64,000 bases of DNA from an uncultured virus (IMG/VR IMGVR_UViG_3300044991_001638) (IMGVR_UViG_3300044991_001638); one strand, 5' to 3'. Positions 1 to 20,067 are shown, counted from the first letter of the stretch. Numbers and translations: made by a program. The notes: generated by a model from the letters alone, not told the origin.

Positions 1-219
1 TTTCTTTGATAATTCAGTATTATTAGAATTGGAATTAATTGGCATACCAATAGCAATTGTTGGAATTCCTGTTTTGGCACATAATGTGGATACCACCGCA
101 GAATCAATACCACCTGAAACACCAACAACCAATGTTTTTATATTATGTTTATTCACATAATTAATAATCCAAGTTTGGATTTTTTCGGATAAATTTTCAT
201 AATCAATTATTCGATTCAT
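1..219 (-). CDS. nadE: NH3-dependent NAD+ synthetase, 5' part (runs off the window edge)
   Basis: Not in the ORF track. Manual translation MNRIIDYENLSEKIQTWIINYVNKHNIKTLVVGVSGGIDSAVVSTLCAKTGIPTIAIGMP contains the NadE-type PP-loop VVGVSGGIDS. Its ATG overlaps the upstream TGA (ATGA, 216-219). Confidence 0.85.
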   Translation of the reverse strand, partial: MNRIIDYENLSEKIQTWIINYVNKHNIKTLVVGVSGGIDSAVVSTLCAKTGIPTIAIGMPINSNSNNTELSKK

Positions 220-1844
220 TCTAAAATTTTTATATATTCATCTTTTATTTTTTGTGCGACATTCATCGTATAATATTTCTCAATATCTGTTGGTGGTTCA
301 TGTTTTTCTTTAGATAAAATAAATCCACCAGAATCTACTTTATATATCCAACTTGATTTACCACACATCCAACTTTCAATTGTTGTTCTACCTAACTGAA
401 TACCTGCGGTTTCATATGATTTTAAAATAAAATCTTCAACTTTCCAAGTTGACGGGAAATATCTAACATGGTCTTCCAATAAAATATTTTCTAAATAATT
501 TCCATTATTTTCACCAACCAACCAAAGTTCTTTTCCAATTTCTTTAGTATATTCAATTAAATCTAAAATAGATTCTTTTCTCAAATAATCTATAGTACCA
601 ACAAATAATACGTAATTTTCCTCTGACGCATTTTTTAATTGGAATTTTTCATTATCAACAGGGTTATAAATTACCTCAATCATTTCTTCAGGTATTTCAA
701 AATTGTTCATCATGTGTTCCTTAATTTCAGGACGAATTGCAACATATTTTTTAATTGTTGGGTCAACAACAGGGTCTTCTAATGAAATTACTTCTGAATG
801 TATTGCACATATTTTAGGTAATTCAGGGTACATGTTAAGGATTCTTTCGGCAACTGGTTTGTGCTGGAAATGAACGATATCATAATCTACTTCGGATACA
901 CGATATAATGCGTTTGGTGTTGATGGTTTAAACCCTTCAGGTGTATTTGTTCCCCATTGTCCATCACCAAGTTTGAAACCTGGCGCGTTTTCAAATGACA
1001 CACATTTAATTCCAAGTTTTTTTGCCATGTCAGTTACAGGTCCACCAATTTGTGAAAGAACCGTAACACTACAGTTTAATTTAATTAAACTTTTAGCTAA
1101 CTCAAAAACATATAACTCAGAACCTGTAAAGTTTCTAAAGGAAATACAAGATAATAAAACCTTTAATCGTTTATTAACATCAAACGGAATTTTTGATGGT
1201 AAGTTCCCCCCATATTTTTTAACAAAAAATTCTCTATTATCTTCCCATTGTTGATTGGTCTGACCAATTGACTTGTGAGTGATTCTAACGTTTGTGATAA
1301 CACCAACCTTAACATCTTCTATATAATTCCTATAACAAAATGCAATGTCATAAAAATGAAACCCTTCAAACTCCTCGTCAAAAGTATATTTAATTCTTGA
1401 TTTACTTAACGCAATAAACACACCATCAACAATAACAGTCGGTTTAATTGATTTACCTAAATCATCAGAGTATTTTGATGTCCATTTTTTTCCTTCACTC
1501 TCATGGTTAACAATACCAATCATGGTATTTCTTGAATCCCACCATCTACCTGTTTCTGGCATATTGGTAGTGCCCGCAACACCTAAGATACCGTAATCAG
1601 TTTTTTCAAAATGAGTTTTAATTTTGTGGAACCAACTTGATGTATCAAAGTAAATGTCATCATGACAAAGAACCACTATGTCAGTTTTTGATTCCTCAAG
1701 AATTTCATTATAAACTTGAGATAATGATTTCTCTCCGTTATTAATCTTTTCAATAACTTCTATTTTTTTAAACCCCGAACTTTTTTTTAAGTACTCGATA
1801 AATTGGGGGTTATGTTCTCTTGTTGAATATCCTACTGTAATCAT
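216..1844 (-). CDS. Two-domain glycosyltransferase (GT2/GT-A N-terminus, GT4/GT-B-like C-terminus)
   Basis: N-half has YNE, LCHDDI and FDEEFEGFHFYD. C-half has FTGSELYVFELAKSL, VIYNPVD, LFVGTI and GRTTIESWMCGK. Confidence 0.75.
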   Translation of the reverse strand: MITVGYSTREHNPQFIEYLKKSSGFKKIEVIEKINNGEKSLSQVYNEILEESKTDIVVLCHDDIYFDTSSWFHKIKTHFEKTDYGILGVAGTTNMPETGRWWDSRNTMIGIVNHESEGKKWTSKYSDDLGKSIKPTVIVDGVFIALSKSRIKYTFDEEFEGFHFYDIAFCYRNYIEDVKVGVITNVRITHKSIGQTNQQWEDNREFFVKKYGGNLPSKIPFDVNKRLKVLLSCISFRNFTGSELYVFELAKSLIKLNCSVTVLSQIGGPVTDMAKKLGIKCVSFENAPGFKLGDGQWGTNTPEGFKPSTPNALYRVSEVDYDIVHFQHKPVAERILNMYPELPKICAIHSEVISLEDPVVDPTIKKYVAIRPEIKEHMMNNFEIPEEMIEVIYNPVDNEKFQLKNASEENYVLFVGTIDYLRKESILDLIEYTKEIGKELWLVGENNGNYLENILLEDHVRYFPSTWKVEDFILKSYETAGIQLGRTTIESWMCGKSSWIYKVDSGGFILSKEKHEPPTDIEKYYTMNVAQKIKDEYIKILE

Positions 1845-3191: not shown

Positions 3192-4409
3192 TTATTTAAT
3201 TATTGATAAATAAAAAGCTCTTCTATCTTTTGTTACGTTATTTAAATCATACTTGTCTTTAACAGTTTCATATAATCTTTCCCCCATATCTTTTACCATG
3301 TTAGGGTTCTCAACTAATTTTTTAATATGTTTCGCCCAATCAGAGTGATTTCTATTTTCATCAACTAACATTGCGTTTCCATCAACAAAGTTACCGTGAT
3401 TTAAACAATGTTTTAAATCTATTGTATATGGACCTAAATCAGATGCAATAAGAGCTTTTTTATAAAATCCCGCTTCAATTACTTTTAATTGTGATTTCAT
3501 TCTATTAAACATTGTATTTTTAATAGGTGATAAAGATACATCAAATTTTGAATAATTTTTGGCGTAAGATGTTACAGGTTGAGTCCAAACTCTTACATAT
3601 GATTCGTCATATTGATTTGGGTAAACCTCTTGAGTATAGTTTAATAAATACTTTTTGTAGTCTTCTGACACCAATACATGGTTTTGGGTAAATATTTTTT
3701 CGTACTGAGCCCAAACAGTCTCATGTGGCAAAATATCTCTTTTATTATGTTCTCCTGTTTGGTTATTAATTTCCGTTACGGTTCCTCTTGTATCAAAACC
3801 ACATAAAACAAATTGTAATTTATCTTTAAGATTAATAATCTTATTAAAAGATTGGTCTAATAATTGAATGTCATGTAAATGAGAAGAACCTCCTAACCAA
3901 CCAATTCTTAATCGGTCTGATTCTAATGTTGGTTCTTTAAATTGTGTTTCATTTGGATTAATTGCATTTGGAAAAACAAAAACGTTTTTATTAAATTTTC
4001 TAATTTCAGTTGCAAATATTTCAGTTGTTGTTGTAATATATGTTGCGACTTTAAGATTTGCAACAATTTTTTCATTAATCTTATTAAATTTAATAATATC
4101 ATGAATTGGGTGTTCTTTACCTGGCATCCAATAATCATCAATATCAGCAACAGTGATTATCCCTAATAAATTTAATTTTTGAATTAATTCATGGGCTTTT
4201 TCAAAATCAGAACCAATACTTCTATGGAATACCACTATTTGATATTTAGACCAAAAGACCATATCATCATACTGTGGGTCAAATATAATATCAACATGAA
4301 ATTCATCTGAATATAAATTTTGTAAAAAAATATGAGGGTCTATTGAACGAAATTTTCCAACACCAGTTTTATCACTAGGGATAACTAAAACATTAATTTT
4401 TTTTTCCAT
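3192..4409 (-). CDS. GT-B (GT4-like) glycosyltransferase
   Basis: Motifs DIDDYW, VFPNAI, IGWLGGSSHLHD, FNRMKSQLKVIEAG and IASDLGPY. Confidence 0.8.
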   Translation of the reverse strand: MEKKINVLVIPSDKTGVGKFRSIDPHIFLQNLYSDEFHVDIIFDPQYDDMVFWSKYQIVVFHRSIGSDFEKAHELIQKLNLLGIITVADIDDYWMPGKEHPIHDIIKFNKINEKIVANLKVATYITTTTEIFATEIRKFNKNVFVFPNAINPNETQFKEPTLESDRLRIGWLGGSSHLHDIQLLDQSFNKIINLKDKLQFVLCGFDTRGTVTEINNQTGEHNKRDILPHETVWAQYEKIFTQNHVLVSEDYKKYLLNYTQEVYPNQYDESYVRVWTQPVTSYAKNYSKFDVSLSPIKNTMFNRMKSQLKVIEAGFYKKALIASDLGPYTIDLKHCLNHGNFVDGNAMLVDENRNHSDWAKHIKKLVENPNMVKDMGERLYETVKDKYDLNNVTKDRRAFYLSIIK

Positions 4410-5216: not shown

Positions 5217-5223
5217 ATTATGT

Positions 5224-5918: not shown

Positions 5919-5922
5919 AATT

Positions 5923-6390
5923 TTATATTTTTGATATTATTTCGTTTATTCTCATAACATTTTCATTAACTGATGGCGTATATTTGTCCACAGTCTTTAA
6001 GTGTTCTTGAGATGTTCTTACATTTGTAAAATTTTTTTTTTCATGCGGGTCAATAAATTGATTCATCATGCCGGCATTCATCTTATTAGTTTTTGTATTG
6101 GCGATGTAATCCCTCATTTTTCTTAATTCATTGTTAACCCAATTTTTAATTTCAACACCACCATTTAAAATAAATGACGGCTCTTTGTGACTACCTTTAA
6201 AATTATCAAAAAAATTTTTAATTCTTTTAAGTTGTTTATATGTAATAAATTTTTGATTTTGAAGTTCTTTATTTCTTTTAAATCCTTCAGTATTCTCATC
6301 CGCATTTTTAACCATATGAAAAAATTTTTTCATATGTTCCCGTTTGTCAGATGGGAATTCAATTTCGTTATCGTATAAACTTTTATTCAT
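5923..6390 (-). CDS. Hypothetical protein
   Basis: 155-aa ORF overlapping the upstream gene by 8 nt. Confidence 0.6.
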   Translation of the reverse strand: MNKSLYDNEIEFPSDKREHMKKFFHMVKNADENTEGFKRNKELQNQKFITYKQLKRIKNFFDNFKGSHKEPSFILNGGVEIKNWVNNELRKMRDYIANTKTNKMNAGMMNQFIDPHEKKNFTNVRTSQEHLKTVDKYTPSVNENVMRINEIISKI

Positions 6391-7195: not shown

Positions 7196-7210
7196 CTTTC
7201 TTTTTTATCT

Positions 7211-7237
7211 ATAAATATTACCTCATAAGGTATTTAT
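7211..7237. promoter_or_regulatory. Back-to-back TATTTAT motifs (putative late promoters) at a divergent junction
   Basis: ATAAATA at 7211-7217 (TATTTAT on minus) and TATTTAT at 7231-7237, in a 51-bp gap between divergent genes. Confidence 0.55.
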
Positions 7238-7246
7238 CATTAGTAT

Positions 7247-10200
7247 ATGGCATATCAAAACATTAATCAGTATAATTTTCGTAAATGGGGAATAAAACCT
7301 GTCAACGAAATCACCGACATTTGCTTAGCATCGGACGAGAGAGATTATGACCAAGAAGTCGTTTTTTCACCTTTATTAATTGGTGAATTGGATGGAAACA
7401 GAATGCCATTTAAATTTGACTTCAATAGTTCAGGGACAACATTATGTCAAACATCAGCATGTTCTTTTGATTACCAAACAATTGTTTCAGAGAATTATTG
7501 GAACCCTGATGACATTGAACCCAACTTTTGTCCAATTGTCACACAATTATGTGATATTGGTTTAACAGGAATTGACAACGGACTGGTTCAAAACATGTCG
7601 GGAGAAACAATAGAAATTACAACAGGATTATATTCAGGTACAACGGATAAGTTTAGTCGATACAAATATGACAGGAGAATGAAACTTCATCCTATCACAG
7701 GTTTTACTACAACTCAAAACAGATTATGGAATGATAACTCATACACTTATGATTTAAATTATCAAAATGTTGGTGGAGATATTGGATATGTTGCAAACTT
7801 ACAAGGTGGATTCTTCCAAGGGTTTTACAAAATACCGGGGTATGATTACCAAGTTTTTCCTCAAAGAGTTCCATTAGGTTGGACTGCTGAATTTATGTTA
7901 AAATATAGATGGACTGGTGATACATCAGGAGGACTTAACAATAGATATCCCGACAATAAGGGTACGTTCTTTTACATGGGGGCAAGAGCCGAGAATAAAT
8001 TTTATCATTATGCCGATGGTAGTCCAAAACAAGATTCAGGATATACAAGAGTTACATCAGGTTTAACTTGTATGCACACTTGTGGTTGTGCAAGTAGTGC
8101 CAATACATCATCACAATGTCTTCAAGTATATCAACCATCAGGTGGTACGATTACAAATTGTACTTGTGGATGTGAGTGTGATTGTACAACAACGGCAGAA
8201 TATCCGGAAAAAGACCCATTATATGATGAGGTTTCAAATGCGTTGTCTTTAAGATTAAGCGGTGACACGGGTAGTCCAAGATTATGTGTTAAGACATATA
8301 GAATAACAGGTGGGTGTGAAAGCACGGGAACTTGTTTAACAGGGATTACTTATGTAACGGGAACTTCATTAACTGAATGGTGTTCAACAAGAGGTATCTT
8401 TGACGATTGCTCAGGGACAACATATCAAAATGTTGAACATTGGGTTCAGATTGATGCCGTATTCCAAAGATATGAATGGTTGGATATCTGTGACCTTTAC
8501 GATAAAGGTGGGCTTGGTCTGCTTGTTAAAGACGTATATTATGCAACAATCGAAGGTAGAAGTGTTACTTTAATTGAGCCTCCAATAACCCATGAGCAAC
8601 CTTATGACCCAGCATCGACTGAAGTTGTGACATTCACAGATATGTGGACTGAAGAACAAAAGTTTAGATTGGGAACACTTAAGTTTTATGTGAATGGAAA
8701 GTTATTCATGGTTACCGAAAACTTTGAAGAAATCATTCCAAGATTGTTAAACACTCCAAAAGAAAAACAAATTGGAGTTGGATATAACATTTCAATTGGT
8801 GGTGGTACTCAAGGACTTCACGATAACTTAACATTCTCAGGTGGTTGTCCCACAACTATAAACGAAATCGTTTATCAACAAGACCCTGAAAGTTTAACAA
8901 CTTATGACTTAGACCATACAATTTATTCTGGTTTAACAACTCATATTAAATTGGAAGAATATTTTGGAGGTAGCATGATTGGTGATATCAGTGCATTTAG
9001 AATGTATACTGAACCATTAAATGCTTCCCAAATTAAACACAACTTTAGAATATTAAAATTTAAATATAATTTATTAGACCCTGATTGTTTAAATTGTAGA
9101 ATAACAATTCCAGGAAATGATTTAACTTATATTTTAATTCCTAATAATGATTTATATTATTTGAGTATACCTGCAAATGATTTGTATTATGAAATAATTG
9201 AACCAACACCTACACCAACTGTAACTCAAACTCCATCTGAGACACCAACAAACACACCCACAGGGACTCCTACCAACACACCAACATTAACGGCAACAGT
9301 AACACCAACCAATACTGTAACACCAACTAATACTCCAACTGTTACACCAACTTCAACACCAACAAATACTCCAAGTAACACCGCAACGCCAACTAATACA
9401 ATTACCCCTACGGTAACGACAACTAACACTGCGACACCAACACAAACTTCTACCGTAACTCCTACCAATACTTTAACACCAACAAATACTCCAACTGAAA
9501 CTCCAACAAACACTCCAACTCCAACATTAACCCAAACTCCAACATCAACACCAAATCTATTTACATCAACTTGGACAACAACAAGTGCAAGTGAAACAAT
9601 TACTTTACCTTACGATATTGCTGGTACTTATTCGGGGTTTATTGATTGGGGAGATGGCGGTGCGACAAGTATTAATAGTTATGCAAATAGAACTCATACC
9701 TACGCAATTGAGGGGACATATACAATAGTAATAGATGGAGACTGTATAGGGTGGAATTTTGGTTCTTATGGAGGTTCAACTAACATTACTTCCGTAGTAC
9801 ATTGGGGACAACTTCAATTAGGTAGTAATATAGGTTCTTATTTTGCCGCTTGTAATAACTTAAATTTATCTTCAGTTCAAGGCACTTTAAATTTGACAGG
9901 AATAACTACTTTAGAAGGTTTGTTTAGTTCATGTTCTTCTTTAACTACAATTAATAATATAAATTCTTGGAACACTTCATTAATTACTAATATGAAGGAT
10001 ATGTTTTCTTCTTGCCAAAGTTTTAATCAAGCATTATCTTTTAACACTTCAGCAGTTACTACTATGCAAGGTATGTTTACACAAACAACAAACTTTAATA
10101 GTGCATTGAATTTGAATACAATATCAGTTACAAATATGAGAAATATGTTTACTAGTGCAAGAGCGTTTAATCAACCATTATCATTCAATACGATATCAGT

Positions 10201-10483
10201 TACAAATATGAGTTTTATGTTTCAAAGTGCTACCGCATTTAATCAAAACATAGGTGCGTGGAATGTAGCAAATGTTACACTTTTCACAGGTTTTATGTCA
10301 AACAAAACACCTGCAACATTCTCTACTACAAATTTAGATGCTATCTATAATGGATGGGTGACAGTTCAAACAAGTATAAATATATCATTTGGAACCGCAA
10401 AATATTCAGCAGCAGGAGTTGCAGGAAGAAATTATTTAACAGGAACAAAATTATGGACAATAACAGACGGAGGACAAGTATAA
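7247..10483 (+). CDS. Putative virion surface protein: Cys-rich/LamG-like region, Thr/Pro repeat stalk, PKD-like and DUF285/BspA repeats
   Basis: LamG-like LKFYVNGKL...[22 protein letters not shown]. About 120 aa of TPTNT repeats. IDWGDG, repeated NTxxVTNMxxMF..FNQ units and a WTITDGG end typical of DUF285 proteins. Confidence 0.7.
9202..9553 (+). repeat. Degenerate coding repeat (TPTNT/TPTVT), mucin-like stalk
   Basis: Run of acaccaac/actccaac units. Confidence 0.9.
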
Positions 10484-10671
10484 TGAGCAAAATAAAATAC
10501 CCTACAGAAACTACTTACTTTATATCTTACACTAATACTAATGTCTTTGGATATGGAGTAGTGACACCAGAACAAGTTATGGACTCAGGACAGCCTTATC
10601 TCTACACTACATTAAGTGAAGAGGACTGGCTTAAAGAGTTACTAACAAAGTTCAACACAATACCTGAATAA
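10483..10671 (+). CDS. Small hypothetical protein (62 aa, [12 protein letters not shown]...)
   Basis: TAATG stop/start overlap with the upstream gene makes 10483 a better start than 10354. Confidence 0.55.
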   Translation: MSKIKYPTETTYFISYTNTNVFGYGVVTPEQVMDSGQPYLYTTLSEEDWLKELLTKFNTIPE

Positions 10672-10672
10672 T

Positions 10673-10720
10673 ATGCAAACACCAACACATACTCCGACAA
10701 GAACTAGAATACCAACATAA
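10673..10720 (+). pseudogene. Remnant of a Thr/Pro-repeat gene
   Basis: Reads MQTPTHTPTRTRIPT* with the same codon flavour as neighbouring repeats. Confidence 0.3.
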
Positions 10721-10778
10721 AAGAATTAATTATTCGCATTAGTTTCCAATATGATAATTTTGTGTATTTATAGTTGAA

Positions 10779-10937
10779 ATGGAAATTACAATTGGTCAGA
10801 ATTTAAGTTTACCTGTTTTAAAACTTCAAGTTCCATTCAAGGGAACTGTCGAAATTATAAGAATGTACAACACATCATTAACAGTATTTCAAGTCCTACA
10901 AAACTTCAATGCGGATAAATCTAAATACGCACTATAA
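10779..10937 (+). pseudogene. Internally deleted gene (52 aa): start like ORF 19601 joined to a LamG-like C-terminus
   Basis: MEITIGQNLSLPVLKLQV resembles MEFFIKQNSTLPVLKMQV (19601) and is fused to PFKGTVEIIRMYNTSLTVFQVLQNFNADKSKYAL. It has its own TATTTAT at 10765. Confidence 0.55.
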
Positions 10938-10939
10938 AA

Positions 10940-11506
10940 ATGTACACCACAGATTGTAATTACTATAGAATAACAAATTATAATAATGTCCAAACAGGAT
11001 ATTATAGATGGACGGGTTGTACTGATATTATTAGTGTTAATCCTGTAGAACCATTACAAACAAGTTATGTCTGTGCAAAAGATTTATATGTTGAGGATTA
11101 TGCGGCACCTTTAGATGTTGTTAATATGGGATTATGTCCTTCCACAACCCCTACGCCAACTGTAACACCAACACCAACCCAAACATCCGTCACTCCAACA
11201 CCAACCCAAACATCCGTCACTCCAACTCAAACGCCAACACCAACTCAAACCCCATTAGTTATTTACCAATATAATTTATGGACGGGAGGTTATTATCAAA
11301 ATGTTTGTGAATCAACTCATGTCGGTACACCATCAAATGTAACAATTTATACAACAAAACCGTTTGAACTTTTGGTGCCAGGAGATAATGCCTTCGGTAA
11401 TTCATTATTAACCATTCCACCTGTGAACGCAAATTTCACAATTTCAAATGGTAATAGATTTATACAAATGAGCGGAACATTAATTCTTAATGCTGGATTG
11501 TGTTGA
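10940..11506 (+). CDS. Thr/Pro-repeat protein with Cys-containing N- and C-terminal modules
   Basis: 188 aa with a central PTPTQTSVT repeat (27 bp x2). Confidence 0.7.
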   Translation: MYTTDCNYYRITNYNNVQTGYYRWTGCTDIISVNPVEPLQTSYVCAKDLYVEDYAAPLDVVNMGLCPSTTPTPTVTPTPTQTSVTPTPTQTSVTPTQTPTPTQTPLVIYQYNLWTGGYYQNVCESTHVGTPSNVTIYTTKPFELLVPGDNAFGNSLLTIPPVNANFTISNGNRFIQMSGTLILNAGLC

Positions 11507-11555
11507 TAAAAACTAATTAATATGTCTAAAACAAAAAGAATAAGTATTTATTAAC

Positions 11556-12260
11556 ATGGCAATAGGTGTAAGAATTTTAAGTGATAATTTGAGTGGTCAA
11601 ACCACAAATGTTACGTATTTACCAGATACAGGTGGGACTATTGATTTAGGGTCTAAAGTTTTTCCATTTAATTATATTTCAAGTTATTATTATGGTATGT
11701 ACGATTGTTATGTTCCAACATATGGTTATACATATTCTTTAAATGTTCCAGGCCCAACACCAACAAATACTGTTACACCAACACCAACACCAACAAATAC
11801 TGTAACACCAACAAATACTATAACACCGACAAATACTGTAACACCAACAAATACTGCAACACCTACTAACACACCTACGGTAACAAAAACTCCAACAGGA
11901 ACACCATCGGTAACACCAACAAATACTCCAACGCCAAATGAAACTCCAACTCCAACTCCGACAAATATACCAACTGTGCCGCCTGTTAATACGACACCTC
12001 CTTTAATTACGGGGACTAATATGCCAAATCCTTTTGTCGGAACCACAATTACAACTTCAAACGGAACATGGGATAATTCTCCAACATCATTTACTTATCA
12101 ATGGTCTAGAGGACTTTTCGCAATAGTAGATGCAGTGTTATCTACTTATGTACTAGAACCAGGAGACATTGGACAAGAAGTAAAATGTACTGTAACAGCA
12201 ACAAACGAAGTAGGCTCAACATCTGAACCAACTTCAAATAGTGCTTATTCTCTTGGATAA
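11556..12260 (+). CDS. Thr/Pro-repeat protein with C-terminal Ig-like domain
   Basis: TPTNTV repeats, then PPVNTTPPLITG...SNGTWDNSPTSFTYQW...VKCTVTATN. Confidence 0.7.
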   Translation: MAIGVRILSDNLSGQTTNVTYLPDTGGTIDLGSKVFPFNYISSYYYGMYDCYVPTYGYTYSLNVPGPTPTNTVTPTPTPTNTVTPTNTITPTNTVTPTNTATPTNTPTVTKTPTGTPSVTPTNTPTPNETPTPTPTNIPTVPPVNTTPPLITGTNMPNPFVGTTITTSNGTWDNSPTSFTYQWSRGLFAIVDAVLSTYVLEPGDIGQEVKCTVTATNEVGSTSEPTSNSAYSLG

Positions 12261-12342
12261 CAGAAACCGGTAATTGTAATTAATCTTTGAGTGATAGAGA
12301 CCACAAATTAAAACTTTAAACTATTTATTAAAATAAAAAAGA

Positions 12343-12450
12343 TTATCAAGTTTACGAGTAACAATAGGAACATACTATTATACATGGGGTAGTGGGGAAA
12401 CATTAGGAACTTACTATTCCAAGTTGAGTAATACTCCGACAAATAAATAA
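12343..12450 (+). pseudogene. Start-less coding remnant behind an orphan TATTTAT (12322)
   Basis: Open frame LSSLRVTIGTYYYTWGSGETLGTYYSKLSNTPTNK* with no start codon. Looks like a surface-protein module followed by a T/P repeat stub. Confidence 0.35.
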
Positions 12451-12553
12451 ATTGTACTATAAAAATTTTATTAAGTATTAAAAATTATTAAAGAATAAAA
12501 AAATATTTATAATAATATAAAATAACGTAGTATTTATAATAAAATATATAAAA

Positions 12554-14944
12554 ATGGCTTGTAGCAAATATACCTTAACAAATACTGGCTCAACTATAGT
12601 AAATTTTAACTATAGACGATGCGACGATTCTATGTGGGAGTACCAAACGGAATTGACACAAAATGAAACTAAAACAATTTGGTTAATTGATAATACTTAC
12701 TCAACCGCACCTTTATTTTATTCTAGTATTGTTTTAATTAATAATGGTGTTTTTCCACCTCTTTTCCCAACTCCAACCCCAACTTCAACACCAACACAAA
12801 CGCCTACAAATACTCCAACACCAACAAATACTTCTACTCAAACTCCAACTCCAACAAATACTTCCACTCAAACTCCAACACCAACAAATACTTCTACTCA
12901 AACGCCGACTAACACCTCAACTCAAACGCCGACTAACACCTCAACTCAAACGCCGACTAACACCTCAACACCGACAAATACTGTAACACCAACAAATACT
13001 GTTACACCAACAAATACACCAACAAATACACCAACAAATACTCAAACACCAACTGTTACTCCAACAAAAAATAGATTTAGTTTTGTAGTTTCAACAGGTA
13101 CAACAGCTTATGATTCATGTAATGGTATTAACACACCAACAATAACAATATATGGTGATGAGGTAATTTTTGACCAAAATGTATTATTTTATGATTCGTT
13201 ATTTGGTCCAATCACAACTAACATGTCAGGATACTATACAAATTCAGGTCAAGTTGTTCAATTACTTTCAACAGGATATGAAACCGGAGGATTCTCACTT
13301 TGTTCGATGATAATTACAAATACTCCTACACCAACAAATACTGTAACACCAACTAACACACCAACCGTAACTACAACACCAACGGCAACATTTGCATATT
13401 ATACATATAATTTAGGAAGTGGTACATCAATATATGATGCATGTTTCGCAGTTCCATCTTTAGTTTATGGTAGTGTTGCTGCAGGACCTGGTCCAAACGT
13501 AGGAGAAATTTTATATTCTAATACATCATTAACAACTCCAATTCCGGATGGTTTTTATTCTAAAAATGGACTTGCTTGGTATAACGTTACTGGTGGTCTT
13601 GGACAAGTTACTACATCAGACCCTAACGGATGTTTATCAATTCCAACATCAACACCAACATTAACGGCAACAGTAACACCAACCAATACTGTAACACCAA
13701 CAAATACACCAACTAATACTGTAACACCAACTAATACACCAACTAATACTGTAACACCAACTAAAACTGCAACACCAACTGTAACACCAACTAAAACTGC
13801 AACACCAACCGTAACTACAACACCAACGATTACTCCAACAAAAACTAGATTTCCTTTTGTAGTTTCAACAGGTACAACAGCTTATAATTCATGTAATGGT
13901 ATTAATACAATAACAATATATGGTGATGAGGTAATTTTTGATGAAAATGTATTATTTTACGATTCATCATTAGGACCAGTTACAACTGACATGTCAGGAT
14001 ACTATACAAATTCAGGACAAGTAGTTCAATTACTTTCAACAGGAGTGGAAACCGGAGGATTCTCATCTTGTTCATTAATCCCAACTAATACACCAACCGT
14101 AACTCAAACTTCAACACCAACAAATACTCCTACCGTAACTAAAACACCAACAAATACACCAACCATAACTTCAACACCAACAGCAACATTGGCGTATTAT
14201 ACATATAATTTAGGATATGATGGATTTGCGGCAATTGACGCATGTACAGCATATGACCCAGGAACACCAGTTTATGTTTATGGTAGTGTTGCTGCAGGAC
14301 CTGGTCCAAACGTAGGAGAAATTTTATATGATGATACCGCATTAACAACACCAGCATCAAATGGTTATTATTCTAACGGAATTGCTTGGTATAACATTAC
14401 TGGCGGTCTTGGACAAGTTACCACATCAGACCCTAATGGATGTAATTATACCATAGGTGACAATGCTTTAGGTGGTTATATCGCTTACATATTACAACCT
14501 GGAGATTCAGGATATGACGCAAATGTTCAACACGGTTTAGTTGCTACAACAACAAATGTTTCAAGTTCTGCATCATGGGGTTGTCCGGGTACTCTATTAA
14601 CAGGAGCTAGTGGAACTACAATTGGGACAGGTAATCAAAACACCATAGATATAGTAAATGGATGTGCTAATGCGGGAATTGCGGCTAGATTGTGTTCAGA
14701 TTTATCACTAAATGGATATAATGATTGGTATCTACCAAGTATAGATGAGTTAAATAAAGTATGGGATTTTAGAAATGCTTTTGGAGGATTTACAGAAGGA
14801 GAATATTTAAGTTCTACTCAAATTGGAGCTGACGAAATAAATTATATCTTCTTTAATATGGGTATTACTCCAGAACATCTTCCATTAATAGAGACTACTG
14901 GTAAGGGTCAACTTATGAACGTTAGAGCGATTAGGTCTTATTAA
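12554..14944 (+). CDS. Multi-module Thr/Pro-repeat protein with duplicated domains and C-terminal DUF1566/Lcl (C-type-lectin-fold) domain
   Basis: Four T/P tracts separate A-B-A-B modules. C-terminus [20 protein letters not shown]...YLSST...VRAIRSY. Confidence 0.75.
12812..12967 (+). repeat. Tandem 30-bp x3 (near-perfect) and 24-bp x3 (perfect) coding repeats
   Basis: actccaacaccaacaaatacttctactcaa-like x3, then actcaaacgccgactaacacctca x3 (12896-12967). Confidence 0.9.
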
Positions 14945-14980
14945 CAATTTATTTAAAATATAATATAAATTATTATAGAT

Positions 14981-15010
14981 AAAACCCTTCAGTTTTTTGA
15001 AGGGTTTTTT
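14981..15010 (+). terminator. Intrinsic terminator
   Basis: Stem aaaacccttca/tgaagggtttt followed by a T-run. Confidence 0.75.
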
Positions 15011-15035
15011 ATTTTTAGGTATAAAATAATATTAT

Positions 15036-16301
15036 ATGAAAATTTTCGTTCAAATCGCCTCTTATAGAGACCCTCAGTTAATTCCAACAATTAAAGACAT
15101 GTTGGCAAACGCCAAAAAACCAAATAACCTTGTCATAGGTATTGCAAGACAATATAGTGATGAGGATGGTTTTGATAATTTAGATGAATACAAAGACGAC
15201 AAAAGATTTAGAATCTTAGATATTCCTTATCAAGACGCCAAAGGTGTATGTTGGGCGAGACACCAAGTTCAACAACTTTATAAAGGTGAAACTTACACCC
15301 TACAAATTGACTCTCACATGAGATTTGTAAAGGATTGGGATGATATCCTTATCAAAATGATAAAGGGGTTACAGAAGGACGGATACAAAAAACCTCTACT
15401 TACGGGTTATGTTCCTTCTTTTGACCCCGAAAATGAACCAGCAGGAAGAGCTCAAGAAGCTTGGAGAATGGTTTTTGACCGATTTATTCCTGAAGGAGCA
15501 GTGTTTTTCTTACCTGAAACAATTCCAGGATGGAAAGAAATGAAGAAACCTGTGACCTCAAGATTCTATTCGGCTCACTTTTGTTTTACATTAGGACAAT
15601 TCTCAACGGAAGTCCAACATAACCCTGAATATTATTTTCACGGTGAAGAAATTTCAATTGCCGCAAGAGCTTACACTTGGGGTTATGATTTATTTCACAC
15701 TCATATTCCTGTTGTTTATCACGAATATACTCGTAAGGGTAGAACAAAACAATGGGATGATGACAAAACTTGGGGACAAAAGAATAGTCACTCTCACTTA
15801 ACAAATAGAAAGTTATTTGGTATGGACGGTGAAAAACAAGAAGGTCATGATGGTCCTTATGGTTTTGGTCCTGTTAGGACTTTAACGGAATATGAAAAAT
15901 ATGCTGGTATTTTGTTTTCAAAGAGAGCGATTGACAAACATACCTTAGATAAAAATTATCCACCAAATCCATATAATTTTGAAACAGAACAAGAATGGAA
16001 AGATAGTTTCTGTATGATGTTCAAACATTGTATTGATATCGGATATTCACAAGTTACTGAAACTGATTATGATTTTTGGGTTGTTGCATTCCATAATGAT
16101 AAAGATGAGACTTTATTTAGAAAAGATGCCGACAAAAACGAAATTGCAGGTTTTATGATAGACCCTGACAAATACTGTAAAGTATGGAGAGAGTTCCAAA
16201 CTGATGAAATGCCTTCTCATTGGGTTGTTTGGCCTCACTCAGAATCAAAAGGATGGTGTGATAGAATCACAGGTAGATTAACCAATAACCAAGTTAGTTA
16301 A
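15036..16301 (+). CDS. GT60-like polypeptide/hydroxyproline alpha-GlcNAc transferase (Skp1 Gnt1-like) with C-terminal extension
   Basis: IFVQIASYRDP, AKGVCWARH, LQIDSHMRFVKDWD, SAHFCF and FHGEEISIAARAYTWGYD match the GlcNAc-transferase (GT60) family pattern. Confidence 0.8.
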   Translation: MKIFVQIASYRDPQLIPTIKDMLANAKKPNNLVIGIARQYSDEDGFDNLDEYKDDKRFRILDIPYQDAKGVCWARHQVQQLYKGETYTLQIDSHMRFVKDWDDILIKMIKGLQKDGYKKPLLTGYVPSFDPENEPAGRAQEAWRMVFDRFIPEGAVFFLPETIPGWKEMKKPVTSRFYSAHFCFTLGQFSTEVQHNPEYYFHGEEISIAARAYTWGYDLFHTHIPVVYHEYTRKGRTKQWDDDKTWGQKNSHSHLTNRKLFGMDGEKQEGHDGPYGFGPVRTLTEYEKYAGILFSKRAIDKHTLDKNYPPNPYNFETEQEWKDSFCMMFKHCIDIGYSQVTETDYDFWVVAFHNDKDETLFRKDADKNEIAGFMIDPDKYCKVWREFQTDEMPSHWVVWPHSESKGWCDRITGRLTNNQVS

Positions 16302-17044
16302 TGAAATTTAATGAAATACCTAAATTTGTTGTTAATTTAGAAAGACGACCTGACCGATTGGAACATATCAAAAAAGAGATGGAATATATTGGTTGGGATT
16401 ATGAAATATTCAAAGCGATAGATACTAATTCTTATATGGGTATTACTCGTTCTATTTTGGAAATAATTAAAATTGCAAAAGAACAAAAATATCCTCGTGT
16501 AATGGTAATTGAAGATGATTGTTCCTTCATGCCATACGCTAAAAATTTCTTAGAAAAATTAGAAAATAAATGTGATGGATTAACGTTTGGGGTTTTTAAT
16601 TTATCACCAACTTTAAATAGATTTATTAATAGAAGTCAGGATAATGAAATGTTATTAGATATGACTAATTTACCTGAGAAAGAAGAACATTTACGAGACA
16701 TTTACGCTTGTAATATGATTATATTTGACGAATCAATTTATGATGAATTGTTTAACATTAAAGATACGGCATTTCAAAGTGGTGAATATTTCTATGCAAT
16801 TGATGATTATATCTTTAAGTATATAATAACAAAACATCAAAGTTATTGTCCAATTTTACCTGTTGCACCACAAGGTAATGATTTATCCAATATTTCTGAC
16901 GGTGTTTATAATAACTTTTATTTACAAACATATAATTGGAATTTATTTAGTCCTATAAAAATTCCAAATGAATTTATGGACCAATATAAAAATCAAGAAA
17001 TAAAAAATAACAAAGAATATAAAGAAGTTTATTATGTCGGTTAA
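16301..17044 (+). CDS. GT25-family glycosyltransferase
   Basis: VVNLERRPDRLE, IFKAID, VIEDD and AIDDY. Confidence 0.75.
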   Translation: MKFNEIPKFVVNLERRPDRLEHIKKEMEYIGWDYEIFKAIDTNSYMGITRSILEIIKIAKEQKYPRVMVIEDDCSFMPYAKNFLEKLENKCDGLTFGVFNLSPTLNRFINRSQDNEMLLDMTNLPEKEEHLRDIYACNMIIFDESIYDELFNIKDTAFQSGEYFYAIDDYIFKYIITKHQSYCPILPVAPQGNDLSNISDGVYNNFYLQTYNWNLFSPIKIPNEFMDQYKNQEIKNNKEYKEVYYVG

Positions 17045-17915
17045 AATTATCACATCAATTTATAGTGATTTACATGGTACAGAGTTTGGTGGTCGAGTTG
17101 GTAGAGGAGGTCATTACAGATTTAGTCTATTGTCGTTATTAAAAATAACAGACGCCGATTTTTTATGTTACACTTCAGACAGAGAAATTAAATCCTTAGA
17201 ATCATTTTTTTACGACGAAAACGGAGTGTCTCCCGAAAAATTACAATTTCAAGTTTTTGACATTGCAAACACAAAATTCAAAGATTTAATTAACCAATAT
17301 AAAAATATTGAAGGAACTAAGAAATCGGATAGATGTATTGAAATACAATATTCAAAATTTCATTGGTGGTCAAATGAAGATAAATCTTACGATTATTATT
17401 ATTGGATTGACGCTGGTCTTTCTCATTGTGGTTTAATACCTTTGAAATATCTAACAAGTACTCACCCGCAAGGTAGATATTATGAAAGTAACCTGTTTAA
17501 TAATGATTTTATTAAAAATGTTATTGAGGATACTGGTGATAAATTTTTACTTTTGGGTAAAGAAAATGACCGAAATTATTGGTCTGGAACTGTAAAAAGA
17601 AAATGGTATACTGAATACGATAGAAGTATTCATATTATTGGTGGAATGTTTGGTGGTCATAGAGATAAGTGGGATGAGGTAGTTAATATATTTGAAGGAT
17701 ACACTAAAAATATTATTGAGGAAGATAAAGGATTACCACATGAAGAAGAGATAATGTCATTAATGTATGTAAACCATAAAGAATTATTTGAAAGAAAACA
17801 TTTTGATATTTGGTGGTGTAGGGATAATGCACCTACAGGGGTAACAGATGAAATGTTTACATTAAACAAAAGTTTTTATAAAATTTTAGAAGAATTCAAT
17901 AGAATATATGAGTAA
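17034..17915 (+). CDS. HtrL/YibB-like putative glycosyltransferase
   Basis: IITSIYSD, SKFHW, YYWIDAGL, IGGMFGG and EEEIMS. Confidence 0.6.
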   Translation: MSVKIITSIYSDLHGTEFGGRVGRGGHYRFSLLSLLKITDADFLCYTSDREIKSLESFFYDENGVSPEKLQFQVFDIANTKFKDLINQYKNIEGTKKSDRCIEIQYSKFHWWSNEDKSYDYYYWIDAGLSHCGLIPLKYLTSTHPQGRYYESNLFNNDFIKNVIEDTGDKFLLLGKENDRNYWSGTVKRKWYTEYDRSIHIIGGMFGGHRDKWDEVVNIFEGYTKNIIEEDKGLPHEEEIMSLMYVNHKELFERKHFDIWWCRDNAPTGVTDEMFTLNKSFYKILEEFNRIYE

Positions 17916-19584
17916 TATAACGTTAGTAACAGGAATATGGGATATCGGTCGAGAAGAATTAACCGAAGGTTGGTCAAGACCCTACCAACATTATTTAGAT
18001 AAGTTTGAACAACTTTTAAAGTGTGATGAGAACATGATTATTTTTGGGGACGAAGAACTTCAAAAATTTGTTTTCGAAAGAAGAAGTCATGACAATACAC
18101 AATTTATTCTTAGACCAATGTCTTGGTTTAGAGAATCTGAATTTTTTAACAAAGTTCAGAAAATTAGAACTGATGAAAATTGGCAAAATTTATCTGGTTG
18201 GTTAAAAGAATCAACACAATGTAGATTAGAAAATTATAATCCATTAGTTATGTCCAAGGTATTCTTATTACACGATGCTAAGATTATGGACAGATTTGAC
18301 TCTGAATATATGTTTTGGATTGATGGTGGTTTAACAAATACCGTTCATCAAGGTTATTTTACTCATGATAAAGTTTTAAATAACTTGTCAAAATACATTT
18401 CAAAATTTTCATTTATTTGTTTTCAATATGACGCTGAAACTGAAATTCATGGTTTTGAATATAATAAGTTAAATTCTATTGCGGGTTCAAAAGTTAATAA
18501 AGTCGCGAGAGGTGGATTTTTTGGTGGCCCAAAGCATACCATTAGTGATATTAATGGAATATATTATAATTTGTTACAAACAACTTTAGATGAAGGTTAT
18601 ATGGGTACCGAAGAATCAATCTTCAGTATTATGTGTTATAAACACTCAGATATGGTTAATTATTTTGAAATTGAATCTAATGGTTTGGTTGGTAAGTTTT
18701 TTGAAGATTTAAAGAATAATGAATTGAAACCTAAATCTGAAAATATTCATAAAGAAACAAACACATTAGATGTTAATAAAGTTGGTTTATATGTGATTAC
18801 ATTTAATAGCCCAAAACAATTTTCAACTTTAATTGAATCCATGAATGCTTACGATAAAGATTATTTATTAAAAACTAAAAAGTTTTTGTTAGATAATTCA
18901 AGTGATACTTCAACATTTGATGACTATGCTAAATTGTGTGAAGAAAATGGGTTTGAACACATTAAGAAAGATAATTTAGGGATTTGTGGTGGTCGTCAAT
19001 GGATTGCCGAACATTTTCAAAATGAAACAGATTTAGATTTTTATTTGTTTTTTGAAGATGATATGTTCTTTTATCCAAAAGAGGGAGATGTATGTAGAAA
19101 TGGTTTTAACCGATATGTTCCAAATTTATATTCAAAAACATTACAAATTGTTAAAAAAGAAAACTTTGACTTTTTAAAACTCAATTATAGTGAATTCTTT
19201 GGAGACAATGGCACTCAATGGTCATGGTATAACGTACCTCAAGATGTTAGACAAAAGTATTGGCCAGGTAAAGACAGATTACCTGTTCAAGGATTAGACC
19301 CAAATGCTCCAAGAACGGTATATGATTCAGTTAATTCATTTCAAGGAGTTCCTTATGTAACAGGTGATGTTTATTATTGTAATTGGCCTCAAATTGTTAC
19401 AAGAACAGGAAATCAAAAAATGTTCTTAGATGTAACATGGGGACATCCATTTGAACAAACTTGGATGAGCCATATGTATCAGTTGGTTAAGAAAGGTGAG
19501 TTGTATCCTGGATTATTACTTATGACACCAACAGAACATGATAGATTTGAACATTATGAAAGAAGTTTAAGAAAAGAGTCATAA
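17908..19584 (+). CDS. HtrL/YibB-like domain fused to a GT-A (GT2-like) domain
   Basis: N-half TLVTGIWDIGR, SKVFLL, FWIDGGL, GGFFGG and TEESI. C-half YVITFN, LLDNSS, NLGICGGRQ and FFEDD. Confidence 0.65.
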   Translation: MSNITLVTGIWDIGREELTEGWSRPYQHYLDKFEQLLKCDENMIIFGDEELQKFVFERRSHDNTQFILRPMSWFRESEFFNKVQKIRTDENWQNLSGWLKESTQCRLENYNPLVMSKVFLLHDAKIMDRFDSEYMFWIDGGLTNTVHQGYFTHDKVLNNLSKYISKFSFICFQYDAETEIHGFEYNKLNSIAGSKVNKVARGGFFGGPKHTISDINGIYYNLLQTTLDEGYMGTEESIFSIMCYKHSDMVNYFEIESNGLVGKFFEDLKNNELKPKSENIHKETNTLDVNKVGLYVITFNSPKQFSTLIESMNAYDKDYLLKTKKFLLDNSSDTSTFDDYAKLCEENGFEHIKKDNLGICGGRQWIAEHFQNETDLDFYLFFEDDMFFYPKEGDVCRNGFNRYVPNLYSKTLQIVKKENFDFLKLNYSEFFGDNGTQWSWYNVPQDVRQKYWPGKDRLPVQGLDPNAPRTVYDSVNSFQGVPYVTGDVYYCNWPQIVTRTGNQKMFLDVTWGHPFEQTWMSHMYQLVKKGELYPGLLLMTPTEHDRFEHYERSLRKES

Positions 19585-19600
19585 CAATATATTTATTGTT

Positions 19601-19978
19601 ATGGAATTCTTTATTAAACAAAACTCGACGTTACCTGTATTAAAAATGCAAGTAGTAAAAGATGGTAGAGCGGGTTACTTGGAACTGATGCAGGACTTGG
19701 AAGTTTCTACTATTTTTTTTACAATGATTGATGTTGAGACCGAAATCCCTAAAATTGTGTCTGCCCCTTGTGAAATTGTTTCACTTATCTTACCTTTAGG
19801 TGCGACACCTGAATATTATATCTATTACAAATTCACTTCAAGAGACACAAACACACCAGGTAGGTATGTTGGTCAGTTCTTAATTAAGAATGACGAGGGA
19901 AATTTAATTCTTCCAATCAGAGAGGAATTATATATTAATATTCAACCAAGTTTTATTTCGGAAACTGCTTGTTGTTAA
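19601..19978 (+). CDS. Putative virion adaptor protein (BppU N-terminal-like)
   Basis: Pattern YYKFTSRDTNTPGRYVGQFLI...ILP. Preceded by TATTTAT. Confidence 0.45.
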   Translation: MEFFIKQNSTLPVLKMQVVKDGRAGYLELMQDLEVSTIFFTMIDVETEIPKIVSAPCEIVSLILPLGATPEYYIYYKFTSRDTNTPGRYVGQFLIKNDEGNLILPIREELYINIQPSFISETACC

Positions 19979-20009
19979 TTTGATTAATCCAATTTTTTAT
20001 TTATATTTA
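19979..20009 (+). promoter_or_regulatory. Putative host-RNAP promoter for DNA polymerase (TTTG-N19-TATATTTA)
   Basis: Same architecture as at 50845-50876. Confidence 0.45.
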
Positions 20010-20067
20010 TTTACGAAGGTAAATTTCACGACGGTGTGAAAGCTAATGAACCAAAGAAATAAGTATT

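Follow-up and report, generated by a model that had tools for sequence, protein, structure and literature searches.

A candidate phage-borne mucin-type O-glycosylation locus pairing a GT60-family enzyme with Thr/Pro-tract proteins

The GT60 alpha-GlcNAc-transferases of protists include the mucin pp-GlcNAcT of Trypanosoma cruzi, Golgi enzymes of Dictyostelium, and the cytosolic Gnt1, which acts on a hydroxyproline of Skp1. Virion glycosylation occurs in mycobacteriophages of the Che8, Corndog and Myrna type. In many proteins, tracts rich in Thr and Pro (T/P tracts) serve as ordinary linkers between domains, and LPS-core loci are the main known setting of the GT25 and HtrL/YibB families. The protist enzymes are covered in a description of the GT60 family (PMC8724618), and the mycobacteriophage modifications are placed at the C-termini of capsid and tail-tube subunits (PMC12619734). 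For the cultured jumbo phage XacN1, Yoshikawa et al. (2018; PMC5852040) suggested that the GT60 homolog ORF334 glycosylates virion proteins, of which at least two bands were Schiff-positive, as glycoproteins are, and were not assigned to ORFs (their Supplementary Fig. S4); the main text of that paper does not link ORF334 to T/P tracts and names none of the T/P ORFs.

Here, we analysed a 64-kb window (the whole stretch of DNA under study) from an uncultured jumbo phage, in which 4 consecutive ORFs carrying T/P tracts (7247–14944) lie directly 5' of a GT60 gene, ORF 15036. With the protist GT60 enzymes, this protein has in common the PF11397 domain, a DxH motif with a distal His and a Thr/Pro-rich acceptor region, and it is soluble like Gnt1. 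In contrast to them, it belongs to phage and bacterial genes with no secretory pathway, its activity is a candidate one predicted from sequence, it has an extra C-terminal beta domain of ~100 aa, and Thr alternates strictly, as (Thr-x)n, in its candidate acceptor tracts. Relative to the GT27 polypeptide GalNAc-transferases of animals and Toxoplasma, the initiators of mucin-type O-glycosylation, it is only 11–15% identical, lacks a membrane anchor and would act in a cytoplasmic setting. As in the mycobacteriophages, phage-encoded glycosyltransferases (GTs) are proposed to act in the cytoplasm on structural proteins of the same phage, whereas here a GT60 leads the set and the proposed sites lie within fibre-like proteins, in long internal T/P tracts. 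XacN1, with its Schiff-positive virions, shares the GT60 homolog (ORF334, 45% identity) and the cassette partners, but its cassette adds a carbamoyltransferase and sits away from T/P genes. An initial annotation of the window had regarded this arrangement as undescribed; we found no paper describing GT60–T/P tract coupling, but the suggestion that ORF334 glycosylates virion proteins was already in print.

T/P-tract proteins upstream of the GT60 gene

Using a 30-residue window with at least 60% T+P and frames of at least 100 aa, the four ORFs were the only frames in the whole 64 kb with such tracts, which comprised 136, 50, 104 and 284 residues in T/P proteins 1, 2, 3 and 4, respectively. A 20-residue window gave 9 tracts with a total of 517 aa (T 44%, P 21%, N 9%, V 7%), in agreement with the initial annotation of four consecutive genes encoding several hundred tract residues. 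Thr alternation was strict, as the probability of T at i+2 given T at i was 0.92 compared to 0.03 for T at i+1, and at the DNA level the tracts were made up of tandem repeats whose periods ranged from 12 to 48 nt. The absence of an evident signal peptide was likewise borne out, since none of the 4 N-termini, as read from the translations, had a hydrophobic signal-like segment.

All four genes are on the + strand. T/P protein 1 (7247..10483, 1078 aa), a candidate glycosylation substrate and appendage protein, has a conserved 650-aa N-terminal part that belonged to no known family and had no match among 50,697 cultured-phage records, followed by two (Thr-x)n tracts at residues 649–776 and a C-terminal DUF285/BspA-type repeat domain (PF03382, E 2.1e-36). 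It was matched in 43 of 80 related loci, with a median identity of 83% over 60% of its length. T/P protein 2 (10940..11506, 188 aa) has a single 48-aa tract (residues 61–108) and no Pfam family, and was found in 46/80 related loci. In T/P protein 3 (11556..12260, 234 aa), a 96-aa tract (residues 59–154) precedes a C-terminal stretch of ~90 aa (residues 141–229) that resembles a phage virion structural protein module (phrog_26223, E 1.8e-10; phrog_12736 'virion structural protein', E 3.9e-7). T/P protein 4 (12554..14944, 796 aa) is laid out as beads on a string, with five tracts (250 aa) between duplicated globular modules, and its C-terminus is Lcl_C/DUF1566-like (PF07603, 21.7–25.9 bits, below the curated cut-off of 34.9). 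Related loci covered only ~24% of the length of T/P protein 4 at a median identity of 57%, and it thus appears modular and fast-evolving. Lacking signal peptides and combining conserved N-terminal parts with C-terminal domains that are variable and of binding type (DUF285, Lcl_C-like, Ig-like), these proteins are most likely virion appendages.

The GT60-family enzyme and its operon

ORF 15036 (15036..16301, + strand, 421 aa) leads the GT operon. Its assignment to GT60, for which the initial annotation had asked for confirmation, was upheld by PF11397 (GlcNAc; 218.7 bits against a cut-off of 21, E 2.1e-64), matched in two stretches that extend to position 349 of the 352 in the profile, and by phrog_24687 (E 7.2e-167). 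The catalytic domain, of GT-A type, contains H229 and a DxH motif (D92, H94), a signature shared with GT27; these three residues, the presumed Mn2+ ligands, were invariant in 35 homologs and in a 15-sequence set that included bacterial homologs. A C-terminal beta-rich domain (about residues 320–415) is absent from the ~300-aa bacterial homologs. In a high-confidence model, the closest solved folds were the polypeptide GalNAc-transferases (GT27) of animals and Toxoplasma, with 11–15% identity over the aligned catalytic domain. The type II membrane anchor and stem of the Golgi GT60/GT27 subgroup were not found in ORF 15036: its N-terminus is MKIFVQIASYRD, and because residues 3–10 already form the first strand of the modelled fold, the enzyme is taken to be soluble. 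We propose it as the initiating polypeptide HexNAc-transferase. Dense candidate Ser/Thr/Pro acceptor domains are encoded alongside the proposed initiating enzyme, as in a mucin-type O-glycosylation system.

The last T/P gene and ORF 15036 are 91 bp apart, and in this gap lies an intrinsic-terminator-like hairpin (14981..15008, + strand) with a 12-bp stem, a 4-nt loop, an A run before and a T run after. It was the strongest terminator-like site within 7000–20200, which agrees with the terminator previously placed at 14981 between substrates and enzymes, and the T/P genes and the GT operon are therefore probably separate transcripts.

The four operon genes overlap successively by 1, 11 and 8 nt, all on the + strand. 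ORF 16301 (16301..17044, 247 aa), which overlaps the GT60 gene by 1 nt, is a GT25-like protein (PF01755, 40.2 bits against a cut-off of 24) whose best stretch covers only residues 7–45 and profile positions 3–41 of 199. Present in 56/80 related loci at a median identity of 56%, it is the most variable operon member, and is proposed to be an elongating enzyme. ORF 17034 (17034..17915, 293 aa), a conserved cassette partner that is possibly HtrL/YibB-like, had no match in Pfam or NCBIfam; it aligned with ORF 17908 by BLASTP (E 0.007, a shared GGxFGG region), an Atlas language-model lead (score 0.97) placed it in a cluster of which 51% of members have HtrL_YibB, and its homologs within the XacN1 and Xoo-sp13 cassettes were 30% identical to it. 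ORF 17908 (17908..19584, 558 aa) is a two-part protein with an HtrL_YibB N-half (PF09612, 66.4 bits against a cut-off of 24.1). Equivalence of this half to E. coli YibB was rejected, as TIGR02192 gave 79.5 bits, below the equivalog cut-off of 264.9. For the C-half, possibly GT2-like, neither Pfam (E up to 1) nor a sequence comparison with PDB gave a match, and the one GT2 lead comes from an Atlas cluster with PF00535 on 25% of its members. ORF 17908 was found in 77/80 related loci and is tightly linked to GT60 across phages; among cultured phages, full-length homologs occurred only in the same 4 that have GT60. Thus, of the four overlapping GT genes in the initial annotation, the overlaps, the GT60 and the HtrL half of ORF 17908 stand, GT25 holds above its cut-off for an N-terminal stretch only, and the HtrL-like ORF 17034 and the GT2 half had no curated match.

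Two further GTs are encoded on the − strand: a two-domain GT2-like and GT4 enzyme (216..1844; PF13712, E 5.2e-28; PF13439, E 4.4e-9) and a GT-B type enzyme (3192..4409; phrog_7162 'glycosyltransferase', E 2.7e-44; weak PF13692 and PF00534 matches below their cut-offs). Both may belong to the same glycan pathway. Elsewhere in the window, the tail tube gene occupies 33700–34188; the capsid gene is outside the window.

Linkage of GT60 to T/P tracts across phages and bacteria

Co-occurrence of GT60 and T/P genes in related phages, set beforehand as a test, was observed. In IMG/VR loci with a GT60 83–100% identical to that of the window, T/P ORFs were upstream on the same strand in 75/80, and the remaining 5 had <160 bases of upstream flank each. 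Across these loci, GT60 (median 88%) was conserved to a similar degree as DNA polymerase (84%) and the T/P genes were reshuffled. Three T/P ORFs form a second cluster in the nearest relative, downstream of the baseplate module and beside a collagen-like tail fibre of 949 aa (phrog_5073, E 2.8e-87). Among 80 distant viral contigs (GT60 31–67% identical to the window enzyme), 37 had a T/P tract (≥25 aa) no more than 2 kb away and 43 had none at that distance. The first kb upstream contained a tract in 25/76 loci, compared to 37 of 563 one-kb bins 5–10 kb away.

In cultured jumbo phages, the TPTxTPT DNA pattern occurred 51 times in XacN1, 51 times in Xoo-sp13 and 22 times in RAS14, all of which carry GT60, and 0 times in Atu_ph07 and SCTP-2, both without PF11397, a contrast that amounts to about one lineage with GT60 versus two without; the reversed pattern, used as a control, gave 0–1. 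Identity to XacN1 and Xoo-sp13 was 45–48% for GT60 and 40–41.5% for ORF 17908, compared to a genomic background of 32% over 178 aa for the sheath, 23% for RNR and no match for DNA polymerase. By these identities, the cassette is common to the window and these phages far beyond the genomic background. In XacN1, Xoo-sp13 and RAS14, replication genes (DNA polymerase, RNase H) surround it and no T/P gene is adjacent; that of XacN1, with its extra carbamoyltransferase, is distant from the T/P genes.

We also examined 82 bacterial PF11397 loci, 79 from an alignment-based scan (25–65% identical to an Arcticibacterium reference) and three others (L097, L098 and L100; 28–37% identical to the window enzyme). 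A T/P tract was present within 2 kb in 26/82, mostly on the same strand, and absent at that distance from the other 56; in 14 of the 26, the T/P ORF was ≤100 bp from the GT gene. Bins with a tract numbered 25/282 near the gene and 3/505 far from it (odds ratio 16, p 4e-9, with bins of the same locus non-independent). For the 32 loci with full flanks, tracts were found within 2 kb in 9, at 2–6 kb in 4 and at 6–10 kb in 2. The enrichment was nearly gone with a relaxed S/T/P criterion (39/282 vs 43/505, p 0.02), and a relaxed same-strand S/T/P count found a tract in only 3 of 23 loci below 50% G+C. After tract masking, the 26 neighbouring T/P proteins fell into 16 unrelated families, so the tract, rather than any one protein family, is the common element. 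Overall, the adjacency spans several bacterial phyla and other phage lineages at GT60 identities of 25–67%.

Proposed function and alternative explanations

What genes the locus contains, the enzyme's family and fold, and the linkage of PF11397 to T/P tracts across genomes are established. We consider it probable (roughly 0.62) that the locus is a phage-borne cytoplasmic mucin-type protein O-glycosylation system acting on the phage's own T/P proteins. The initial annotation had paired the GT60 and the tracts as enzyme and substrate, and this is supported in part: the comparative evidence (the 25–67% identity range, the unrelated T/P families and the GT27-like fold) is strong.

The tracts could instead be plain, unglycosylated flexible linkers in adhesin or fibre proteins that evolve fast, next to an operon that makes or modifies a non-protein glycan (such as host LPS core, capsule or exopolysaccharide) and so blocks superinfection or alters the cell surface, their adjacency reflecting a shared accessory region. 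The classical association of GT25 and HtrL/YibB with LPS, the terminator that splits the T/P genes from the GT genes, the XacN1-type cassettes without adjoining T/P genes and the 56/82 bacterial loci without a nearby tract all fit this explanation, which we nevertheless regard as rather unlikely. A variant that is not exclusive of the proposed system resembles Skp1 modification, with a phage 2OG-Fe(II) oxygenase hydroxylating tract Pro and the GT60 then glycosylating hydroxyproline rather than Thr. The family includes the Hyp-directed Gnt1 of Dictyostelium and Toxoplasma (family description in PMC8724618), the phage enzyme is soluble as Gnt1 is, and, with three PF13640 2OG-Fe(II) oxygenases in complete clade genomes, Thr is not the only possible acceptor. 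Yet XacN1, with the cassette, T/P tracts and Schiff-positive virions, has no PF13640 match; the nearest oxygenase in a clade genome is ~40 kb from GT60, with a best NCBIfam match, far below cut-off, to a peptide-maturation oxygenase; and Thr is the invariant alternating tract residue, Pro taking only 21% of positions. Hydroxyproline as the acceptor is a less likely option still.

Glycosylation of other phage proteins (capsid, sheath or decoration), as in mycobacteriophages and with the T/P proteins not being substrates, would be compatible with the known modification of capsid and tail-tube C-termini (cited in PMC12619734) and with the unassigned Schiff-positive bands of XacN1, but it leaves the T/P–PF11397 adjacency in bacteria, which have no capsids, unexplained and seems very unlikely. 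Hypermodification of phage DNA through glycosylated hydroxymethylated bases is hardly credible, although the operon adjoins DNA polymerase both here and in XacN1 and DNA-glycosylating phage GT-A enzymes exist. The latter are reported to have R...DDD...EDY/F motifs and to cluster with 5mYOX, ThyS/hydroxymethylase or C5-MT genes (10.1101/2023.12.21.572611), whereas ORF 15036 has DxH and no 5mYOX, ThyS/hydroxymethylase or C5-MT neighbour in the window. The only PF00303 gene in a complete clade genome is ~88 kb away and by score an ordinary thymidylate synthase (302.8 bits against an equivalog cut-off of 108), and the bacterial homologs adjoin T/P proteins in chromosomal loci.

For the proposed O-glycosylation system, we infer the transfer, the acceptor residue (Thr or hydroxyproline), the sugar, the order of elongation, the virion location and the benefit. 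During infection, ORF 15036 would transfer the first sugar, by family analogy most likely GlcNAc, from a host UDP-sugar to the hydroxyls of the alternating Thr in (Thr-x)n. Its substrates would be the four upstream T/P proteins and further T/P proteins elsewhere in the genome, and the glycan would be extended by the translationally coupled GT25-like, HtrL-like and two-part HtrL/GT2-like proteins. Glycosylated bottle-brush fibres on the virion would be consistent with the T/P cluster beside a tail fibre in the nearest relative and with the Schiff-positive virions of XacN1. The linkers of the T/P proteins would become stiff, protease-resistant glycosylated stalks. Because the pairing of GT60 with T/P tracts recurs in distant phages and many bacteria, this phage probably sugar-coats its own appendage proteins.

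The Thr/Pro proteins and the glycosyltransferase operon

The four Thr/Pro (T/P) proteins named in the initial annotation (ORFs 7247, 10940, 11556 and 12554) were all present, and they were the only frames of at least 100 aa with Thr/Pro tracts in the 64 kb. Nine tracts were counted in the window, totalling 517 residues (44% Thr, 21% Pro, 9% Asn and 7% Val), with strict alternation of threonine (probability of Thr at position i+2 given Thr at i, 0.92); imperfect DNA tandem repeats of 12–48 nt underlie them. Direct reading of the sequences bore out the claim that these proteins lack a signal peptide, as none of the four had a signal-like hydrophobic start. The gap directly upstream of ORF 12554 (12459–12554) contains AT-rich tandem repeats with periods of 18–27 nt, which may act as a promoter or regulatory region. 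Two additional glycosyltransferase genes lie upstream of the T/P genes on the opposite strand, and the block between the two glycosyltransferase regions encodes a 133-aa protein with a WYL domain (5224–5625, minus strand; E = 7.4e-5).

A hairpin with a 12-bp stem followed by a T run (14981–15008) separates the T/P genes from the glycosyltransferase operon, which consists of four genes with overlaps of 1, 11 and 8 nt. ORF 15036 belongs to GT60 (PF11397) by both family and fold, as first proposed. ORF 16301 scored above the GT25 cut-off through an N-terminal stretch only. For ORF 17908, the HtrL label held for the N-terminal half (HtrL_YibB), and the C-terminal half matched no curated family; its earlier GT2 label and the HtrL-like label of ORF 17034 were not confirmed and stand as weak leads only. 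Sequence searches of the PDB with ORF 15036 and ORF 17908 gave no match. The ORF 15036 model was built from an alignment, since a single-sequence fold was unusable (pLDDT 34.6) and was discarded. In this model the C-terminal domain (residues ~320–415; 15993–16298) is beta-rich and confidently predicted; it matches no Pfam family and is absent from the ~300-aa bacterial homologs. In some structural alignments of ORF 15036, the match extended to the part of GalNAc-T2 and T4 that holds the lectin domain.

The PF11397 family comprised 4456 representatives at 50% identity (E up to 0.001). Fusion of GT60 enzymes to a T/P tract of their own was considered and rejected, as a tract was found in only 1 of the 150 best representatives; thus, the substrate is not part of the enzyme itself. 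Some PF11397 relatives (P0122, P0123, P0124 and P0150) are giant proteins of 1600–2460 aa with 4–5 tandem GT60-like stretches.

The phage and the location of its Thr/Pro proteins

The window comes from a large phage with a contractile tail and encodes a tail sheath, tube, baseplate hub and wedge, family-B DNA polymerase, helicases, ribonucleotide reductase and dUTPase at a G+C content of ~30%; no tRNA genes were found in it. The nearest record (G001), a fragment of 104 kb with a completeness rating of 28%, encodes an identical GT60 protein, and relatives with an 84% identical GT60 are complete genomes of 317–321 kb, one of them with terminal repeats. Only the last ~280 residues (about 794–1071) of the 1073-aa tail sheath protein (29504–32725, plus strand) matched sheath profiles, its first ~800 residues falling outside the match. 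Two giant ORFs of 1696 and 2409 aa (37239–42329 and 42642–49871, plus strand), located between the baseplate-hub and SSB genes, had no PHROG or Pfam matches. An unusual auxiliary gene for a phage is the 509-aa ORF at 24253–25782 (minus strand), which contains a complete Fe/Mn superoxide dismutase (PF00081 and PF02777) and ~280 extra residues.

Two short contigs binned with Saprospiraceae MAGs, probably of phage origin, carry a GT60 (69% identity) and an ORF 17908 homolog (60–62%), a weak hint of a Bacteroidota host. Aquatic jumbo phages of Bacteroidota ("moraphage", PMC12619734) are described as having four core glycosyltransferase orthogroups.

Several features suggest that the T/P proteins sit on the virion, and the absence of signal peptides was counted among them. 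ORF 7247 combines a conserved N-terminal part with a variable C-terminal DUF285 domain, a layout common in phage fibres, and ORF 11556 ends in a module similar to one from a PHROG annotated as a virion structural protein. The nearest relative has three further T/P ORFs clustered 3' of the baseplate genes, flanked on one side by an ORF containing a Hoc-like module and on the other by a 949-aa collagen-like tail fibre. This second cluster is far from the GT60 gene in the relatives (G001, 2897–8784; the related genome G002, 307.8–313.5 kb and 6.2–6.7 kb) and adjoins a tail fibre gene; by position, it would fall about 14–19 kb past the right end of the window. The N-terminal 651 aa of ORF 7247 had no tblastn match among 50,697 phage records and no Pfam family, which leaves a role in virion anchoring putative.

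Pairing of GT60 with Thr/Pro tracts in phages and bacteria

Linkage between enzyme and tract was tested at four evolutionary distances, namely in close relatives, distant phages, bacteria and cultured phages. The expected co-occurrence in related phages was seen in 75 of 80 IMG/VR loci (GT60 83–100% identity), which had T/P ORFs upstream on the same strand; the five others had almost no upstream flank. These loci are kin, so adjacency among them shows conservation, not independence. GT60 and DNA polymerase were equally conserved in the close relatives (median identity 88% and 84%, respectively), and the T/P genes varied in number and length and matched only piecewise. In 80 distant viral contigs (GT60 31–67% identical to that of the window), a tract of at least 25 aa was found within 2 kb in 37 and was absent from this interval in 43; the first upstream kilobase contained a tract in 25 of 76 loci, compared to 37 of 563 one-kb bins located 5–10 kb away.

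Bacterial PF11397 loci had a T/P tract within 2 kb in 26 of 82 cases, mostly on the same strand, and in 14 of these 26 the T/P ORF was less than 100 bp from the glycosyltransferase gene. Near bins contained a tract more often than far bins (25/282 vs 3/505; odds ratio 16, p = 4e-9, with bins of one locus being non-independent), and among the 32 loci with full flanks a tract occurred within 2 kb in nine, at 2–6 kb in four and at 6–10 kb in two. According to record titles, these loci span Bacteroidota, Verrucomicrobiota, Actinomycetota, Acidobacteriota, and Alpha- and Gammaproteobacteria. The 26 neighbouring T/P proteins fell into 16 families after tract masking; among them were a Sphingomonas protein of ~1200 aa whose glycoside-hydrolase domain is Rv2525c-like, and a BNR/fn3 protein. 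The surroundings of a Scytonema homolog are prophage-like: they encode an amidase, part of a recombinase, a collagen-like ORF and a (Pro-Thr)n protein of 826 aa. On an Arcticibacterium chromosome, amid housekeeping genes, a 422-aa protein, two-thirds of which is T/P tract, is encoded 86 bases 5' of a 305-aa GT60 homolog. By eye, this protein (locus L100, 1835–3103) begins with a basic RR start and a hydrophobic run, resembling a twin-arginine export signal. If bacterial substrates were exported after folding and modification in the cytoplasm, their topology problem would be solved. Three results count against generality: 56 of the 82 bacterial loci had no nearby tract, low-G+C bacterial loci rarely had one (3/23 by a relaxed S/T/P count), and the relaxed S/T/P definition gave a high background with little bacterial enrichment, which is why the T+P-specific definition is reported.

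Only four of 50,697 cultured-phage records had a GT60 homolog (XacN1, Xoo-sp13 and the Stenotrophomonas phages CM1 and RAS14), and the same four alone had a full-length ORF 17908 homolog. In a scan of five cultured phages (reversed-pattern control, 0–1), the back-translated TPTxTPT pattern occurred 51 times in XacN1, 51 in Xoo-sp13 and 22 in RAS14, and was absent from Atu_ph07 and SCTP-2, both of which lack PF11397 and are named beside XacN1 as very large sequenced phage genomes (PMC5852040). The three XacN1 regions examined contained tracts (TPTVTPTITPT...) in at least 15 ORFs, including the large ORF369, 370 and 372 adjoining the tail sheath genes, five in a row (ORF232–236), and ORF325 close to the cassette; the window T/P proteins had no homologs in the fetched XacN1 and Xoo-sp13 regions. 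The cassette is far better conserved than the phage cores between the window phage and the XacN1 group, with identities of 45–48% for GT60, 40–41.5% for ORF 17908 and 30% for ORF 17034, compared to 32% over 178 aa for the sheath, 23% for ribonucleotide reductase and no match for DNA polymerase. The closest matches of the window DNA polymerase (20068–22797) were in Salinibacter and Nostoc/Anabaena phages (23–26% identity) rather than the XacN1 group, and thus the cassette and the replication core have had different histories.

In XacN1 replication genes surround the cassette, which is set apart from the T/P genes and has an extra 765-aa carbamoyltransferase (ORF333; locus L082, 13409–15706; also in L083 and L181) directly after GT60, which hints at an O-carbamoylated glycan in that group. 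The XacN1 paper reports at least two virion glycoproteins and suggests the glycosyltransferases ORF328 and ORF334 as their makers (PMC5852040); of the two, ORF334 is homologous to GT60. In the paper's Supplementary Fig. S4, according to the legend, virion proteins were Schiff-stained; the stained proteins are left unnamed, and the T/P ORFs looked for in the main text are not mentioned there (PMC5852040).

Proposed glycosylation of the tracts and its meaning

Our preferred reading is that a GT60-led system glycosylates the T/P tracts, to which we assign a probability of roughly 0.6. Modification would be mucin-type-like O-glycosylation on (Thr-x)n tracts inside the cytoplasm of the infected bacterium. 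The enzyme-substrate relationship put forward by the initial annotation is partly supported: the comparative linkage is strong, and the sugar chemistry is what we infer.

Action of the operon on LPS or another non-protein glycan fits the GT25 and HtrL family names and the terminator between the two gene groups, but leaves the adjacency of tracts in bacteria and the enzyme fold unexplained. Glycosylation of DNA is unlikely, as the phage DNA GT-A enzymes known so far have different motifs and cluster with base-modifying enzymes, and the sole PF00303 gene of the clade scores as an ordinary thymidylate synthase. Within the tracts themselves, the acceptor may be hydroxyproline instead of threonine; three oxygenases of PF13640, candidates for prolyl hydroxylation, occur in the clade genomes, although XacN1 has none.

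Dense Thr/Pro domains are the targets of a polypeptide HexNAc-transferase in mucin-type O-glycosylation, which is regarded as a trait of the eukaryotic secretory pathway. Glycosylation of T/P tracts by GT60 would proceed in a similar mode, but in the cytoplasm of a bacterium and on (Thr-x)n tracts. Virion glycosylation is described for mycobacteriophages on acceptors other than T/P tracts (cited in PMC12619734), and coupling of GT60/PF11397 to phage or bacterial T/P tracts was not found in the literature searched, which covered few subscription journals. More broadly, we hold it evenly balanced whether an undescribed enzyme-and-tag pair, made up of soluble PF11397/GT60 enzymes and (Thr/Pro)n tracts, is widespread among bacteria and their phages and performs cytoplasmic mucin-type O-glycosylation outside eukaryotes. 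With it, jumbo phages would glycan-coat hypervariable appendage proteins, and it is a possible prokaryotic or viral source of the eukaryotic GT60/GT27 mucin-initiating enzymes.

Given the size of the PF11397 family, the question concerns many organisms, not one phage. A soluble version of mucin-type O-glycosylation in prokaryotes and viruses, with a simple acceptor tract that is easily recognised, would, if true, extend the known scope of protein glycosylation among bacteria and phages. Its enzyme and tag would be ready for use in glycoengineering in the E. coli cytoplasm, and its existence would be relevant to how the GT27/GT60 enzymes originated. The T/P "linkers" that many phage fibre proteins have in abundance would then be functional glycan carriers, with a bearing on host recognition, protease resistance, particle stickiness in water and mucus, and immune recognition of therapeutic phages.
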